DNA of 64,000 nt, from assembly GCA_023435925.1 (NCBI GenBank), contig JAEZLF010000135.1, positions 6,768 through 70,767 on the forward strand. The letters run 5' to 3'. The position numbers and the translations under genes were made by a program. This DNA is from Bacillota bacterium. Lineage in GTDB: Bacteria > Bacillota > Clostridia > Acetivibrionales > DTU013. Every line of letters begins with the position of its first letter. Positions within the stretch are counted from its first letter, which is position 1. The notes under the pieces are model-generated. The model was given only the letters and a program-made list of their open reading frames with translations. It had not been told where the DNA came from and did no database searches. This document shows, one piece after another, positions 4,156-9,698 of this stretch.

Positions 4156-5820
4156 CTAATCGCATTTCTTTTCGAAATTCTTGTGTCCGCCGGAAAGATT
4201 ATATACCTTCTTAAAGCCTTTGTTTATCAATATGTTTTGTGTTGCATTACCCGTTACACCTTTATTGCAGTAAGTGACAGTAAGGGCTTCCTTATCAAGA
4301 GAGTCGGCAGCAGCTCTCATTTTTTCCTGGGGAATGTTAATGGCACCTTCTACATGTGACTTCATATACTGACCTTCTGTTCTTGTATCAATAATACTTA
4401 TTTCTTCCCCATTTTCAATCTTCTCCTGTAACTCATGAGCAGTAATCAACTCTCTGTGACGGTTTATTGCGTTATCCAGAATCATGCCGGTATACATGAC
4501 AGGGTCCTTTGATGTAGAAAACGGCGGAGCATAAGCCAGATCCAGATGAAACAGATCCTCTGCTTTTGCGCCGAAGGTGAGGGCTGTGACAAATACATCG
4601 GTTCGTTTATCTACACCCGATTTACCGATGATTTGTGCCCCCAGCATCTTCCCCGTTTTTCTGTCTGCAACTGCTTTTATCAACATTTCACTGCCATGAA
4701 AGTAGTCAGGCTTGTCAGGTTTGATATTATGACAGACTTCTACATCATATCCTTCTGCAATTGCTTCTTTCTCGGTAAGACCGGTCTGAGCCACTGTTAA
4801 ATCGAAAATTCTGAAAATGCCTGTGCCAAGAATGCCTCTAAACTCCAGATCTTTTCCTGTGACCTGTTCGCCAACGATCCTGCCGGTTTTATTTGCGGTA
4901 GAGCCCAGTGGCCTGTAAAGCGGTTTTTGGGTAATCAGTGAGTAGCTTTCGGTACAGTCGCCGCAGGCGTATATGTCGGGGATGTTGGTTTGCATTCTGG
5001 TGTTTACTTGAATTGCACCTGTTGGCCCTATTGCGATTCCCGCATTTTTGGCCAACTCCACATTGGGCCTGATTCCGGCGGCAAGGACAACAAAGTTGGT
5101 GTTTATCACATTCCCACTTTTTAGAACAACTTTTCTGGCATCTGAATTTGCGGTCAATGAGCCACCTTCCAGCTTTACCACAGTATCATTTAGTACCAGA
5201 TTTACACCTTTATGCCTCAAATAGTCTTCCAAATAAATAGCGATATCTTTATCCAATGAGGCCATCACATGGTCAGCCATTTCAACGACAGTGACCTTTA
5301 TGCCCCTCGCAGTGAAGTTTTCCACCAGCTCAAGTCCGATAAATCCAGAACCCAATATCACCGCAGATTCTGGTCTGTTTTTTATGATGTAATTTCTGAT
5401 ATGATCGGCATTGACGACATTACGCAGGGTGAAAACATTGGGTCTGTTGACACCATCAATGGGAGGGATGACGGATCTGGCACCTGTGGCGATGACCAGC
5501 TTATCATAAGATTGGGAAAAGATCTGTTGTGTATCCATATTCTGTACAGTGAGAGCCTTATCGATTGGGTTTATATCCAGCACCTCATGACGTGTGAATA
5601 CGTCAACATTGTATTTTTTCTTAAAATAGACAGTATCTCTGGGCACCAACTGAGTTCTGCTCTCGATTTCTGTCCCGATGTAGTAGGGAAGGCCGCAGCC
5701 CGAATAGGATATGTCGCTGTCCTTATCATAGATGATGATTTCTGCATTCTCATCGTTTCTTCTCGCTTTTGCTGCAGCGGAAGTCCCGGCAGCTACACCG
5801 CCGATGATTACGATCTTCAT
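4156..5820 (-). CDS. CoA-disulfide reductase / NADH oxidase-type flavoprotein with C-terminal rhodanese domain
   Basis: FAD fold IIGGVAAG, redox Cys in SYSGCGLPYY, second dinucleotide fold ILGSGFIGLE. The C-terminal ~100 aa are rhodanese-like (TYCNKGVTG). Confidence 0.8.
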   Translation of the reverse strand: MKIVIIGGVAAGTSAAAKARRNDENAEIIIYDKDSDISYSGCGLPYYIGTEIESRTQLVPRDTVYFKKKYNVDVFTRHEVLDINPIDKALTVQNMDTQQIFSQSYDKLVIATGARSVIPPIDGVNRPNVFTLRNVVNADHIRNYIIKNRPESAVILGSGFIGLELVENFTARGIKVTVVEMADHVMASLDKDIAIYLEDYLRHKGVNLVLNDTVVKLEGGSLTANSDARKVVLKSGNVINTNFVVLAAGIRPNVELAKNAGIAIGPTGAIQVNTRMQTNIPDIYACGDCTESYSLITQKPLYRPLGSTANKTGRIVGEQVTGKDLEFRGILGTGIFRIFDLTVAQTGLTEKEAIAEGYDVEVCHNIKPDKPDYFHGSEMLIKAVADRKTGKMLGAQIIGKSGVDKRTDVFVTALTFGAKAEDLFHLDLAYAPPFSTSKDPVMYTGMILDNAINRHRELITAHELQEKIENGEEISIIDTRTEGQYMKSHVEGAINIPQEKMRAAADSLDKEALTVTYCNKGVTGNATQNILINKGFKKVYNLSGGHKNFEKKCD

Positions 5821-6334: not shown

Positions 6335-6604
6335 AAAATCAGCCTCCCTTATTGATATTGAACTATCTATTAGTTTATCATAAAGCATAGCTTTTTGCAT
6401 CTGGGAATCTGATTTCAACGTCAGTGCCTGCTTCGGGCCAGCTTTTGAAGGTTAGCCCATGTGATAATGGTGACAGTGGGGACGGTACAATTTTGACAAC
6501 TTGGGACAATGGGGACAGGGCAACAAGCGAGAAACATTAGCCTGTCGTAGTCTCCTACCGCCCTGTCGCATGTCACTGTGACTGCAGGAAATCTTGCAAA
6601 ACTA

Positions 6605-6633
6605 TTGACAAATGAATGTGAATATGGCAGAAT
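6605..6633 (+). promoter_or_regulatory. sigmaA-like promoter (TTGACA, 17 nt, TG-n-CAGAAT)
   Basis: TTGACA at 6605-6610, a 17-nt spacer, then TG at 6625-6626 and CAGAAT at 6628-6633. Confidence 0.4.
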
Positions 6634-6653
6634 ATTTCAAAAGAAAAAGCCAG

Positions 6654-6847
6654 ACACCGCCTGAAGGTGGATAATAAAAAGCAGCTTTGCTGCAAAAAAT
6701 TAAGGATGATTATACCACCTGAAGGTGGATAATAAAAGCAGCTTCGCTGCAATATTATAAGGGCGATTATACCGCCTGAAGGCGGATAATAAAAGCAGCT
6801 TTGCTGCATTAAATTAAGGATGATTATACCACCTGAAGGTGGATAAT
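6654..6847 (+). repeat. four tandem 57-58 nt units, each with one or two short hairpins
   Basis: Hairpin-1 cores CCRCC-TGAA-GGYGG lie at 6657-6670, 6715-6728, 6772-6785 and 6829-6842. Hairpin-2 GCAGC-TTY-GCTGC lies at 6681-6693, 6738-6750 and 6795-6807. Confidence 0.9.
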
Positions 6848-6921
6848 CGTAAGTGAGTATGCTTAAGAGACTAACTTGAGCAGCATAGGGGCGAAAGCCT
6901 TACACGCGGGATTACGACCTG

Positions 6922-6958
6922 CGGAGTCACTTTAATCGGTGATTCCGTGGGCTTTTTT
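6922..6958 (+). terminator. intrinsic terminator-like hairpin plus T6
   Basis: CGGAGTCAC (6922-6930) pairs with GTGATTCCG (6939-6947) in 8 of 9 positions. TGGGC then TTTTTT (6953-6958) follow. Confidence 0.5.
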
Positions 6959-7049
6959 ATTGTTGGAGTGCATCAGAATTTGGCCGCCAGGGCTTGTCAA
7001 GCCTTGATACTGCGGTGAAAAATTTATTATATATGGGGGAGTTGATCGT

Positions 7050-8120
7050 ATGCATGCAACGGATACCGGATTGGCTATTGAAGTTAGGAACCTAAAAAAG
7101 GTCTTTAGAGCGAAAACTAAAAAAGAAGGTTTCCGGTCTAGTCTGAGTTCTCTTGTCAAGCCTGAATACAAAGAAATTGAAGCGGTTCACGATATGGATC
7201 TGCAGGTTCACCGGGGTGAACTCCTCGCATTTCTTGGGCCGAATGGTGCAGGAAAGTCCACCACCATTAAGATGCTTACCGGCATTTTGCATGCGACCTC
7301 CGGAAGTATGTCCGTATTGGGATTTGACCCGCAGCAACAGAGAAGAAACCTCTCATTCCGGATAGGCAGCGTTTTTGGGCAGAAGTCGCAGCTGTGGTTT
7401 CATCTGCCGCCAATGGACAGCTTTAAGCTGCTGGGGGCGATCTATGAAGTAGACCGCACGGAGCTGGAACGGAGAATCAATGAAATTGTTGAACTGTTCG
7501 AAATTGGGGAACTCATGGAGATACCGGTCAGGAAGCTGTCTTTGGGACAGCGCATGAGATGCGAATTTGCAGCATCCATCCTTCACCGGCCGGAAATTAT
7601 CTTTCTGGATGAGCCGACAATTGGTCTGGATGTGCTGGTAAAGCAAAAAATCAGGGAGTTGATTGCCCGTCTCAATAAGGAGGAAGGGACCACAATATTC
7701 CTGACGAGCCACGACATAGGAGATGTAGAGCAGCTTTGCAGCAGAGCGGTCATTGTCAATCATGGCAGGATTGTGACGGACAGCTCCATAAAATTATTAA
7801 AATACGGATATCTGAATCGGAAGATTATTGATGTGAAATTTGACTCATTATCTGACCCGGGTAAACTGAGCGGGCTAAATGTACTTAAAACAAATGGTCT
7901 TTCCATGAAACTGGAGGTAGATGAGCGGGACGGTATACAGAATATCATGCTGCGCCTTATGCAGGCCGGCAGTATCCAGGACGTGACCATTTCGGATATC
8001 CCAATGGAAAAGATTATCGGTGATATATACAGAGATCAGGGGTTGGATAACCAATGTACGGATAACGGTATGAATGCCAAAGCGGGAGTAGAGCAAGATA
8101 AAGCGAGGTGTCAGGTGTGA
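7050..8120 (+). CDS. ABC transporter ATP-binding protein (ABC-2 subtype)
   Basis: Walker A GPNGAGKST, signature LSLGQRMR, Walker B IIFLDEPT. RBS GGGGGAG at 7035-7041. Confidence 0.9.
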   Translation: MHATDTGLAIEVRNLKKVFRAKTKKEGFRSSLSSLVKPEYKEIEAVHDMDLQVHRGELLAFLGPNGAGKSTTIKMLTGILHATSGSMSVLGFDPQQQRRNLSFRIGSVFGQKSQLWFHLPPMDSFKLLGAIYEVDRTELERRINEIVELFEIGELMEIPVRKLSLGQRMRCEFAASILHRPEIIFLDEPTIGLDVLVKQKIRELIARLNKEEGTTIFLTSHDIGDVEQLCSRAVIVNHGRIVTDSSIKLLKYGYLNRKIIDVKFDSLSDPGKLSGLNVLKTNGLSMKLEVDERDGIQNIMLRLMQAGSIQDVTISDIPMEKIIGDIYRDQGLDNQCTDNGMNAKAGVEQDKARCQV

Positions 8121-8908
8121 AGAGGCTGTATAAATACCTTATTGTGACCAAAACCAATATCAGCAGCAACCTGGTCTATGGAGCTGACTTTTTTGCCGGA
8201 GCGTTCTTCTTTGCACTGATTATTTTTGTGTTTTTAGAGCTCTGGGGTGCGATTTCGTTCAATAACGGTTCCATGGAGGGATACACTGTGAACAGACTTG
8301 TTTGGTATTATGTTGCTGCTGAAATGGTCATTCTGTCAAAAAGCAATGTCTTTCAGCAGATGAATCAGGAGATCCGGGGCGGGGGGATAGCATACAAATT
8401 AAACAAGCCTTATAATTTTGTGCTTTATCAGCTCTCTGAGGGAATGGGGCAGATATCGGTCAGGCTGATAATGAATCTTATGGTGGGTTTACTTGTAGGA
8501 TTCCTTTATGTCGGCGGGCTGGAAGGATTCAAACTGATTGCACTGCCGGTGGTAATCCTTTCGATTTTACTGGGGATACTGCTGAATTTTTTCATGGATG
8601 CTCTCATCGGTATGACCTCTTTTTGGACGGAGGACAATTCCGCATTTTACTGGATTGCTCAGAAGCTGTCCTTTATGCTGGGGCTGTTTCTGCCGCTGGA
8701 GTTTCTGCCGGGAGTTATCCGAGAGATTGCGCTCTACCTGCCATTCTCCTATATCGCATATGCACCTGCCAGACTGCTGACATCCTTTTCAATGGAAGAG
8801 GCATGGAACATTATTCCTGTTCAATTGTTTTACACAGTGGCTTTTGCGGCACTTTCAGCATTGATTTATCGGAAGGGAGTGAAAAAACTCAATGTTAACG
8901 GGGGATAG
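8117..8908 (+). CDS. ABC-2 family permease
   Basis: Polytopic membrane protein. A GTG at 8117 overlaps the ATPase stop (GTGA), with AGGTG 6 nt upstream. The track start at 8108 is also possible. Confidence 0.75.
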   Translation: MKRLYKYLIVTKTNISSNLVYGADFFAGAFFFALIIFVFLELWGAISFNNGSMEGYTVNRLVWYYVAAEMVILSKSNVFQQMNQEIRGGGIAYKLNKPYNFVLYQLSEGMGQISVRLIMNLMVGLLVGFLYVGGLEGFKLIALPVVILSILLGILLNFFMDALIGMTSFWTEDNSAFYWIAQKLSFMLGLFLPLEFLPGVIREIALYLPFSYIAYAPARLLTSFSMEEAWNIIPVQLFYTVAFAALSALIYRKGVKKLNVNGG

Positions 8909-9698
8909 AAGTGTTATAAAACATCTGAAGCTGGTTTGCTTATATTTTAAGTACAATCTGCAGGCTGCAATGGAATACAGAGTAAGCTTCATTTCGCAAG
9001 CGCTGGGGATGATGCTGAACAATGCGTTTTTTGTTTTCTTCTGGTGGATCTTGTTTGAAAAGGTTTCCTCCATCGGTGGATATACATTCAAAGAGGTGAT
9101 GGTGATATGGGCTCTGGCATCCTCCACCTATGGCTTTGTTCATATATTTTTCGGAAATCTGCGGGAATTGCCGGGAATCATTATAAATGGCGAACTGGAT
9201 ACATATCTTCTCCAACCGAAAAATGTCTATATTAATGTATATTGCTCCAAAATGCGTGTCTCAGCCTGGGGTGATCTGGCCTATGGAATTATTGTGATTG
9301 TGCTGGTATATGGCCTTGCGCCGGCAAAGCTTCTCCTGTTTCTACTGTTTACTATTGCAGGGGGGATGCTGGCCGGATCGGTTTTTGCCATTGCCGATAC
9401 GCTGACTTTTTACATCGGTAATTCATCAACGATATCAAGGCTTGTGATGGAGTTTCTGATCAACTTCTCCATCTACCCGGAGAGCATATTCCGCCGCGAA
9501 ATAAAGCTGGTCATGTATTCACTGCTCCCGGCGGGTTTCATTGTATTTGTGCCGTTCAGACTCCTTTCGGCCTTCAGTTGGTATGGTCTGCTGGGCTTGC
9601 TGGCCATTGATGCAGTTTACATTACGCTCTCTTATTTGTTTTTCAGGAATGGACTTAAAAAATACGAGTCAGGCAATTTGATAACGACAAAGCAATAA
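8892..9698 (+). CDS. ABC-2 family permease (second subunit)
   Basis: Polytopic membrane protein that overlaps the preceding permease by 17 nt, suggesting translational coupling. Confidence 0.75.
   Translation: MLTGDRSVIKHLKLVCLYFKYNLQAAMEYRVSFISQALGMMLNNAFFVFFWWILFEKVSSIGGYTFKEVMVIWALASSTYGFVHIFFGNLRELPGIIINGELDTYLLQPKNVYINVYCSKMRVSAWGDLAYGIIVIVLVYGLAPAKLLLFLLFTIAGGMLAGSVFAIADTLTFYIGNSSTISRLVMEFLINFSIYPESIFRREIKLVMYSLLPAGFIVFVPFRLLSAFSWYGLLGLLAIDAVYITLSYLFFRNGLKKYESGNLITTKQ

Follow-up and report, generated by a model that had tools for sequence, protein, structure and literature searches.

A short-P1 ykkC-type aptamer behind a variable tandem hairpin array in the leader of a clostridial natA-like ABC-2 transporter operon

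What does a structured leader with four tandem double-hairpin repeats do in front of an ABC-2 transporter operon? The question is raised by positions 6605-7049 of a 64,000-nucleotide stretch of a metagenome scaffold from an uncultured Clostridia member (GenBank assembly GCA_023435925.1, contig JAEZLF010000135.1, positions 6,768 to 70,767 of the forward strand; the whole stretch is called the window below). A preliminary description of this region, made from the sequence alone, listed a promoter, the repeats, a structured 3' domain and a terminator-like hairpin. It treated the repeats as the core of the element and did not recognise the unit as any known RNA family. Our analysis leads to a different answer on both points. 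The region serves a natA-like ABC-2 transporter operon as its 5' leader, and very probably it is composed of a conserved promoter, an accessory array and an ON-switch aptamer homologous to ykkC subtype 2a, most likely of the (p)ppGpp type (guanosine tetraphosphate or pentaphosphate).

On the + strand the whole leader folded far better than its shuffles (z = -7.8). We collected homologues of the downstream ABC ATPase and compared the DNA upstream of each. The promoter, the 3' domain and the terminator were all common to the leaders of the orthologous operons, while the number of repeat units differed. Leaders L006, L007, L008, L010 and L012 had 0 units, with the -10 box about 10 nt upstream of the 3' domain. 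Because orthologous leaders share the 3' domain while the unit number varies, the 3' domain is the conserved functional core. The repeats have been inserted between it and the transcription start, and most orthologous leaders do not have them.

Homology and fold of the 3' domain

A scan of one genome per species with the degenerate core pattern GAGURURYYU ... GAGCRGYAYAGG ... YUACAC returned 117 stretches, nearly all from Clostridia/Bacillota, and each of these matches had a promoter before it and a hairpin plus terminator after it. The members in front of distant ABC-2 orthologues carry CUAGGGUUCCGG ... GGUCCGAGC, as in Clostridium rhizosphaerae, the ATPase of which is 62% identical to that of the window. 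Aptamers upstream of the 61-62%-identical orthologues aligned to the Rfam model Guanidine-I (RF00442) over its full length at 42-46 bits, the threshold being 63. Such a full-length match below threshold is the behaviour that would be expected of ykkC subtype-2 variants. The ATPase P0112 is 61% identical to that of the window, and its upstream element (L133, 1044-1134) is nearly identical to the one in C. rhizosphaerae. This element is the published pppGpp-specific aptamer C101 (PMC9881157). Subtype 2a of the ykkC RNAs comprises the ppGpp riboswitches (Sherlock et al. 2018, PMC6003355), and operons of natA + COG3694 + COG4587 are one of the three published classes of genes under their control, the others being branched-chain amino acid (BCAA) genes and glutamate synthase (PMC6003355). 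It is because the literature ties subtype 2a to natA-type operons and to the C101 orthologue that we assign the 3' domain to this subtype.

A covariance model, R1, was built from short-P1 sequences only, the form carried by the window. R1 has a single match in the window (6846-6935, 78.6 bits). It also recovers canonical subtype-2a members that are outside its seed, C101 at 47 bits (E 6e-11) and the glutamate-synthase (gltB)-type aptamers at 33 bits. The recovery of canonical aptamers absent from the seed shows homology of the short-P1 form and subtype 2a. By these comparisons, the 3' domain is an architectural variant of the ykkC subtype 2a/(p)ppGpp riboswitch that lacks P1b and stands in the known natA-operon context, and not a new RNA family.

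Then, how is this variant folded? The aptamer spans 6851-6932 on the + strand, as delineated by R1, by the minimum-energy fold and by covariation in an alignment of 82 distinct short-P1 homologues from Clostridia, to which the pairing figures below refer. The outermost helix, P0, pairs AAGUGA with UCACUU (6851-6856/6927-6932) and is separated by a single G (6857) from P1, UAUGCU/AGCAUA (6858-6863/6882-6887). An internal loop of UAA (6864-6866) and GAGC (6878-6881) lies between P1 and P1a, GAG/CUU (6867-6869/6875-6877). P2 is the hairpin GGGGC-GAAA-GCCUU (6888-6901, strands 6888-6892/6897-6901), after which come the conserved block ACAC (6902-6905), P3 (CGCGGG/CCUGCG, 6905-6910/6918-6923) and the GAG linker (6924-6926) that joins P3 to P0. 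The P0/P1/P1a/P2/P3 fold was 89.6% paired over the homologues, compared with 75% in shuffles and ~40% in slid controls. P1 was 99.6% paired with three covarying pairs, P2 was 96.3% paired, and P0 was 88.8% paired with four covarying pairs. The GAGC loop was invariant in 82/82 homologues, and UACAC was invariant after P2. The retrieval pattern had let R and Y vary independently on each P1 side; the fact that no A-C combinations occur in P1 therefore reflects real covariation. Folded alone, the segment 6846-6935 takes P0, P2 and P3 as its minimum-energy structure.

The preliminary description had suggested gathering homologous leaders upstream of orthologous ABC-2 operons for a covariance model, and the 82 short-P1 homologues, retrieved by the core pattern, showed strong covariation. 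The junction that it drew for the 3' domain survives in part. The two inner hairpins are P1a and P2 of the ykkC fold. The closing helix CGUAA/UUACG (6848-6852/6912-6916) was paired in 37.6% of cells and is seen only in the terminator-state fold of the window sequence. A helix that we ourselves proposed early, GUGAG/CACGC, was given up as well. Although it was 85% paired, two of its four pairs did not vary at all, and P0 and P3, with which it would compete, have the better support. A possible explanation is that it represents a pairing of the apo state.

The published signatures of the family can be read directly on this fold. In subtype-2 aptamers the expression platform makes use of a P0 helix, and the GAGN loop between P1 and P1a ends in C (C49) and not in A (PMC6031431). 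In the window aptamer the tails pair as P0, the terminator overlaps the P0 3' strand, and the loop at 6878-6881 reads GAGC. As in subtype 2a, P2 is followed by ACAC, and an operon of ABC_tran plus ABC-2 permease lies downstream. All of the bases reported to contact ppGpp are kept, namely the AG before P1, the G of GAGC, and ACAC, the first C of which pairs with the ligand guanine in the (p)ppGpp riboswitch. Compared with the natA-associated (p)ppGpp riboswitches C94 and C101, the window aptamer has the same operon type, the same helix order P0, P1, P1a, P2, P3 and a clostridial host. The blocks GAG-U, UA/GAGC internal loop, AYAGG, YUACAC, GGA...CC and GAGUC are common to both, and so is the terminator overlap that would give an ON switch. 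Among the differences are the P3 loop (AUUACGA instead of the canonical AuAAAAG), the P3-P0 linker (GGAG instead of ACGAG or (A)NARG), and the tandem hairpin array that precedes the window aptamer. The overall scaffold is also common to the aptamers for phosphoribosyl pyrophosphate (PRPP; ykkC subtype 2b) and to guanidine-I (ykkC subtype 1, RF00442). In the alignment, PRPP aptamers also have P0 and GAGC...ACAC, but they lie before purine-biosynthesis genes, retain P1a/P1b and have a long AGGUAGG linker, whereas guanidine-I has GAGA in place of GAGC and no P0.

Terminator overlap and the proposed switch

The intrinsic terminator occupies 6918-6958 on the + strand, with a 14-bp stem at 6918-6951 and U6 at 6953-6958. 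The terminator-like hairpin noted earlier at 6922-6947 is confirmed, its extent being revised to the 14 pairs before the T6 tract. Its 5' arm, CCUGCGGAGUCACU, consists of the P3 3' strand, the GAG linker and the P0 3' strand, and this overlap of aptamer and terminator was found in all orthologous leaders. When the terminator 3' arm was added to the folded sequence, the optimum flipped to the 14-bp terminator (-21.6 kcal/mol) and P0 and P3 were broken. The ppGpp and PRPP riboswitches have the same terminator-overlap design and turn genes on. Since the terminator takes its 5' arm from P3 and P0, whose 3' strands it needs, the ligand-bound aptamer is predicted to block termination, and the element should be an ON switch. 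The ykkC homology and the overlap support the earlier suggestion of a cis-acting, riboswitch-like leader ending in a terminator.

Transcription is predicted to start near 6640, downstream of a sigma-A-type promoter at 6605-6633 (+ strand) with the -35 box TTGACA (6605-6610), a 17-nt spacer and the extended -10 box TGgCAGAAT (6625-6633). This promoter, which agrees with the one first described, matches the consensus in 10/12 positions with the TG present, and it is the top + strand site of the region. TTGACA-17-TGGCARAAT is also found upstream of orthologous leaders. The regulated operon extends over 7035-9698 (+ strand). A ribosome-binding site (RBS) GGGGGAG at 7035-7041 is followed by the gene of an ABC ATPase of the ABC_tran family (7050-8120) and by those of two ABC-2 permeases (8108-8908 and 8892-9698), with a match to ABC2_membrane_6 in one of the two.

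How, then, are these genes reached? In L003 and L005 the RBS and the start codon lie within ~15 nt after the terminator, and because they directly follow it, these two operons must depend on read-through. In the window there are an extra ~90 nt between terminator and gene, with only weak promoter-like matches inside. The window operon probably depends on read-through also, as the preliminary description had thought it might. The nascent transcript would present ~200 nt of self-contained hairpins and after them the aptamer. A ligand, most likely ppGpp/pppGpp or a close nucleotide alarmone, would hold P3 and P0 together, the terminator 5' arm would be unavailable, and polymerase would read into the transporter genes. 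Without ligand, the 14-bp terminator would form and transcription would stop at ~6958. In this scheme our best guess for the tandem units is that they would be tolerated, locally folding spacer hairpins outside the sensing part, which may also lend stability to the 5' end or form a stack with P0.

A separate observation concerns the two ends of the leader. Its 5' end GAAAAAGCC (6643-6651) is complementary to the terminator end and U-tract GGCUUUUUU (6950-6958), and the two are paired in the full-length minimum-energy fold. The complementarity was not seen in other leaders and is probably due to chance.

Ligand of the short-P1 aptamers

What would such an aptamer sense? Several features weigh against its being a (p)ppGpp riboswitch of the published kind. 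It lacks P1b and the CUAGGGUUCCG/GGUCCGAG boxes, which are a ykkC-wide feature, and carries UAAGAG-loop-CUUGAGC. Its P1 stem-loop is 30 nt long, compared with at least 41 nt in all aptamers tested in PMC9881157. An Rfam hit had been named at the outset as a result that would refute the novelty of the unit; the Rfam scan gave none around the finding at E<=10, RF00442 included, and over the 64 kb only two tRNAs reached the gathering score. The P3-P0 linker is GGAG or GAG (3-4 nt, by whether C6905-G6923 pairs) and not (A)NARG. The published (p)ppGpp aptamers have linkers of 4-5 nt, (A)NARG/NAGG, and aptamers with 3-nt linkers are poor (p)ppGpp binders that have been suggested as possible pGpp (guanosine 5'-monophosphate 3'-diphosphate) sensors. 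A G stands directly after P3, as in guanidine-I and PRPP aptamers, and it could be the equivalent of the PRPP-specifying G96, a base with no counterpart in the published (p)ppGpp motif. Lastly, short-P1 members occur before GNAT acetyltransferases, major facilitator superfamily (MFS) transporters and methyltransferases, which are outside the published gene classes of ppGpp riboswitches.

The short form is widespread and is missed by current models. The P1 stem-loop is 25-32 nt in 81/114 distinct retrieved aptamers, canonical P1a/P1b was present in only 13, and the short-P1 relatives in Clostridia number 82 distinct sequences. Two types can be told apart among them by the P3-P0 linker and by what follows GAGUC, with GGAGUCRC in type A and GGAGUCUUA in type B. 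Type A, the form of the window, is found before natA-like ABC-2 operons (21), two GNAT acetyltransferase families (25), MFS transporters, methyltransferases and glutaminyl-tRNA synthetase (GlnRS). The genes downstream of type B include ilvE and leuA. Our literature search found no paper on a short-P1 ykkC variant, on the GNAT association or on such repeats.

A doubtful alternative is that the short-P1 aptamers are a separate riboswitch class on the ykkC scaffold, sensing for example pGpp, another nucleotide derivative or a PRPP-like compound. It is equally doubtful that a signal other than (p)ppGpp would switch the transporter on, as this alternative would have it. The scaffold is known to change its ligand by one or few substitutions (PMC6031431), and the unusual linker, the G after P3 and the new gene associations would all fit such a change. 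However, in front of orthologous natA-type operons the short form is found in some leaders at the very place where others have the canonical (p)ppGpp aptamer, and type B lies before ilvE and leuA, which are classic ppGpp targets. Moreover, every ppGpp-contacting base is kept, and no pur gene or other purine-biosynthesis gene was found among the aptamer gene contexts. The BCAA and natA contexts favour (p)ppGpp, and another ligand is conceivable in view of the linker and the new contexts. On balance of these sequence features, we lean modestly toward (p)ppGpp as the predicted ligand of the window aptamer. We think it unlikely that the short-P1 aptamers form a riboswitch subclass so far overlooked, with a separate ligand preference (such as pGpp or another alarmone), in which the fast-evolving array gained by one clade could give the terminated leader a function of its own, for instance as a protein sponge or a tuner of P0 stability.

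With (p)ppGpp as the ligand, a structured leader that had gone unrecognised becomes a prediction, namely that the alarmone of the stringent response turns on a transporter operon by way of a minimal ykkC scaffold. Should (p)ppGpp be bound by the short-P1 form, the aptamer could do without P1b and the conserved boxes, a large share of the switches in Clostridia (the 81 short forms counted above) would escape current covariance models, and acetyltransferases, MFS transporters and methyltransferases would join the (p)ppGpp regulon. Should the ligand be another, a further specificity would be added to a scaffold known for ligand switching.

Some genomes carry more than one copy of the aptamer. In L117 (Clostridiaceae metagenome-assembled genome CTOTU50225), two complete short-P1 copies (4653-4700 and 4805-4853) stand in tandem before one ABC-2 operon, the first with its own terminator and the second without an obvious one. 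At least two copies before different genes (GNAT, MFS, ABC-2) were seen in several cultured species, namely Oceanirhabdus, Alkaliphilus transvaalensis, Lutispora saccharofermentans and Tissierella simiarum. The short-P1 form is present in cultured relatives such as T. simiarum, Lutispora thermophila and A. transvaalensis. The locus pairs with multiple copies are L021/L072, L026/L032, L052/L074, L042/L062 and L016/L120.

The tandem array and the promoter region

What remains is the array itself, at 6656-6848 (+ strand) between the transcription start and the aptamer. Tandem Repeats Finder reported one array at 6656-6847 with a period of 57, 3.4 copies and 85% matches. The four hairpin-1 copies are at spacings of 58, 57 and 57 nt, with three full 57-nt units, so the tandem organisation described earlier was reproduced. 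Hairpin 1 (6657-6670, 6708-6734, 6765-6790 and 6822-6848) has a lower stem GAUUAU/AUAAU(C), a 1-nt bulge, an upper stem CCRCC/GGYGG and the loop UGAA. Hairpin 2 (6681-6693, 6738-6750 and 6795-6807) is GCAGC-UUY-GCUGC. Pattern matches agree with the four copies of hairpin 1 and three copies of hairpin 2 first reported. The hairpin-1 pattern gave 11 matches, both palindrome strands counted, when 0.75 were expected, and no true copy was found elsewhere in the 64 kb. The central pair of hairpin 1 reads G.U, A-U, G-C and A-U in copies 1-4, as had been noticed. The G.U of the first copy is a mismatch on the opposite strand, and hairpin pairing is therefore at the level of the + strand RNA.

The units are confined to the small clade of leaders to which the window belongs. 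There are 2.5 units in L005, two in L044, L137 and L138, one in L003, L043 and L077, and at least one in L139, which is cut by the contig end. L137, L138 and L139 encode an identical ATPase and differ in unit sequence, and thus the array evolves faster than the gene. Contigs encoding identical ATPase differ in unit copy number also. Both hairpins were 93% paired over 12 distinct units, and four pairs had changed on both sides, in a thin sample of 8 leaders in which the units are not independent. Between genomes, hairpin 1 appears as CCACC/GGUGG, CCGCC/GGCGG or CAGCC/GGCUG and hairpin 2 as GCAGC/GCUGC or GCGGU/ACCGC. The loops vary (UGAA, UUU, GUU, UAU, UUCG, UUAC, UCU). Almost no variation is seen in the linker UAAGG or in the lower stem GAUUAU/AUAAU. 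The preliminary description had asked whether this might be a plain minisatellite. Copy number does vary, from 0 to 4, yet compensatory changes are seen at the four pairs in this small sample. We conclude that the array is an accessory insert, rapidly expanding and contracting, that grew by tandem duplication in one small clade, and that each of its units is under selection for local folding at least, perhaps because this avoids interference with folding of the aptamer.

Other origins for the units were tried and rejected. A degenerate duplicate of the aptamer 5' half is not indicated, since local alignment was no better than that of shuffles (p 0.75-0.99). A mobile element or one of the repetitive extragenic palindromic (REP) kind is not indicated, since units were found nowhere outside these leaders in the window, the 141 loci, viral contigs and plasmids. 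A unit-pattern scan of Joint Genome Institute (JGI) metagenomes also found none, a weak negative as that collection evidently does not contain even the L005 contig; the aptamer pattern gave only 3 loci there, with no units in any. A leader peptide is not indicated either, since the frame AUG-AUU-AUA-CCA-CCU-GAA-GGU-GGA-UAA can be read in units 2 and 4 but is not kept in unit 3 or in other genomes.

Could the array do more than fill space? Its role as a spacer is a best guess, and it may have a positive role as 5' stabiliser, in P0 stacking or as a protein platform. We consider it rather unlikely that the array is a functional RNA module, acting as a protein sponge platform or as a 5' stabiliser or timer that tunes the riboswitch, with a terminated leader of ~320 nt that could act in trans. 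The compensatory changes that maintain both hairpins between genomes would agree with such a module, as would the G.U pair that fits only the + strand RNA and the nearly invariant linker and lower stem; the final hairpin lies directly against P0, with which it could stack. Against this, most orthologous leaders do without units, their promoter lying ~10 nt before the aptamer, unit sequence and copy number vary even between contigs with identical ATPase, the hairpin loops are not conserved, and the covariation comes from the thin, non-independent sample given above. The more specific idea of a sponge for CsrA, put forward speculatively in the preliminary description, is not supported. GGA occurs in 4/12 distinct linkers, the rest having GGU, GGG or UGU, and the site is in a linker and not in a hairpin loop. 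An action of the array as DNA, either as palindromic operators (roadblock sites) just downstream of the promoter or as a neutral minisatellite, is improbable: each hairpin 1 is a 26-bp near-palindrome GATTAT-A-CCGCC-N3-4-GGCGG-ATAATC, copy number is variable and a conserved palindrome by the -35 box makes protein regulation of the promoter probable too, but symmetric positions covary instead of being fixed, the spacer is 3 or 4 nt and one copy has a G.U that is a mismatch in the DNA palindrome, all of them signatures of RNA pairing, and the compensatory changes speak against a minisatellite of a purely neutral kind.

Leaders in which structured modules are repeated before a single expression platform are known from tandem riboswitch architectures (glycine, guanine-PRPP) and from riboswitch-terminated RNAs with protein-binding hairpins (EutX/Rli55). 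The units of the window differ from these in that they are not aptamer copies, have no conserved loops and have no known partner protein. A tandem insert that varies rapidly, preserves its structure and stands directly before a riboswitch is a rarity, and this array could serve for the study of upstream RNA effects on co-transcriptional aptamer folding.

Several minor observations were made in and around the leader. On the minus strand, UUUUAUUAU follows each hairpin 2 (6795-6807, 6738-6750, 6681-6693) and was flagged as terminator-like, and a repetitive minus-strand open reading frame (ORF) of 78 aa at 6573-6809 is an artefact to which the repeats give rise. In L140/L141 (1010-1057) a different insert of ~45 nt, with the internal repeat GCCAAU..GAUACAA, lies between promoter and aptamer, where the window has its array, and the gap between these two elements seems prone to insertions. 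At 5698-5751 there is a match to the fluoride riboswitch below threshold (18.4 bits vs 34, E 0.07), inside an ORF resembling coenzyme A (CoA)-disulfide reductase on the opposite strand, which is probably a chance match. Between the divergent zinc-ribbon gene and the promoter, a direct repeat GACAGTGGGGACGGTACAA / GACAATGGGGACAGGGCAA is found at 6472-6523, 33 nt apart, and CCCTGTC near 6562 is complementary to it. Directly upstream of the -35 box is the palindrome TGCAGGAAATCTTGCA (6583-6598). A palindrome TGCAGGAnnTCCTGCA occupies the same position in at least eight orthologous leaders (including L003, L010/L036, L043, L053, L099 and L106), and half-sites are present in L007, L044 and L140. 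The palindrome at 6583-6598 looks like a transcription-factor site that would add a second control layer to the operon.

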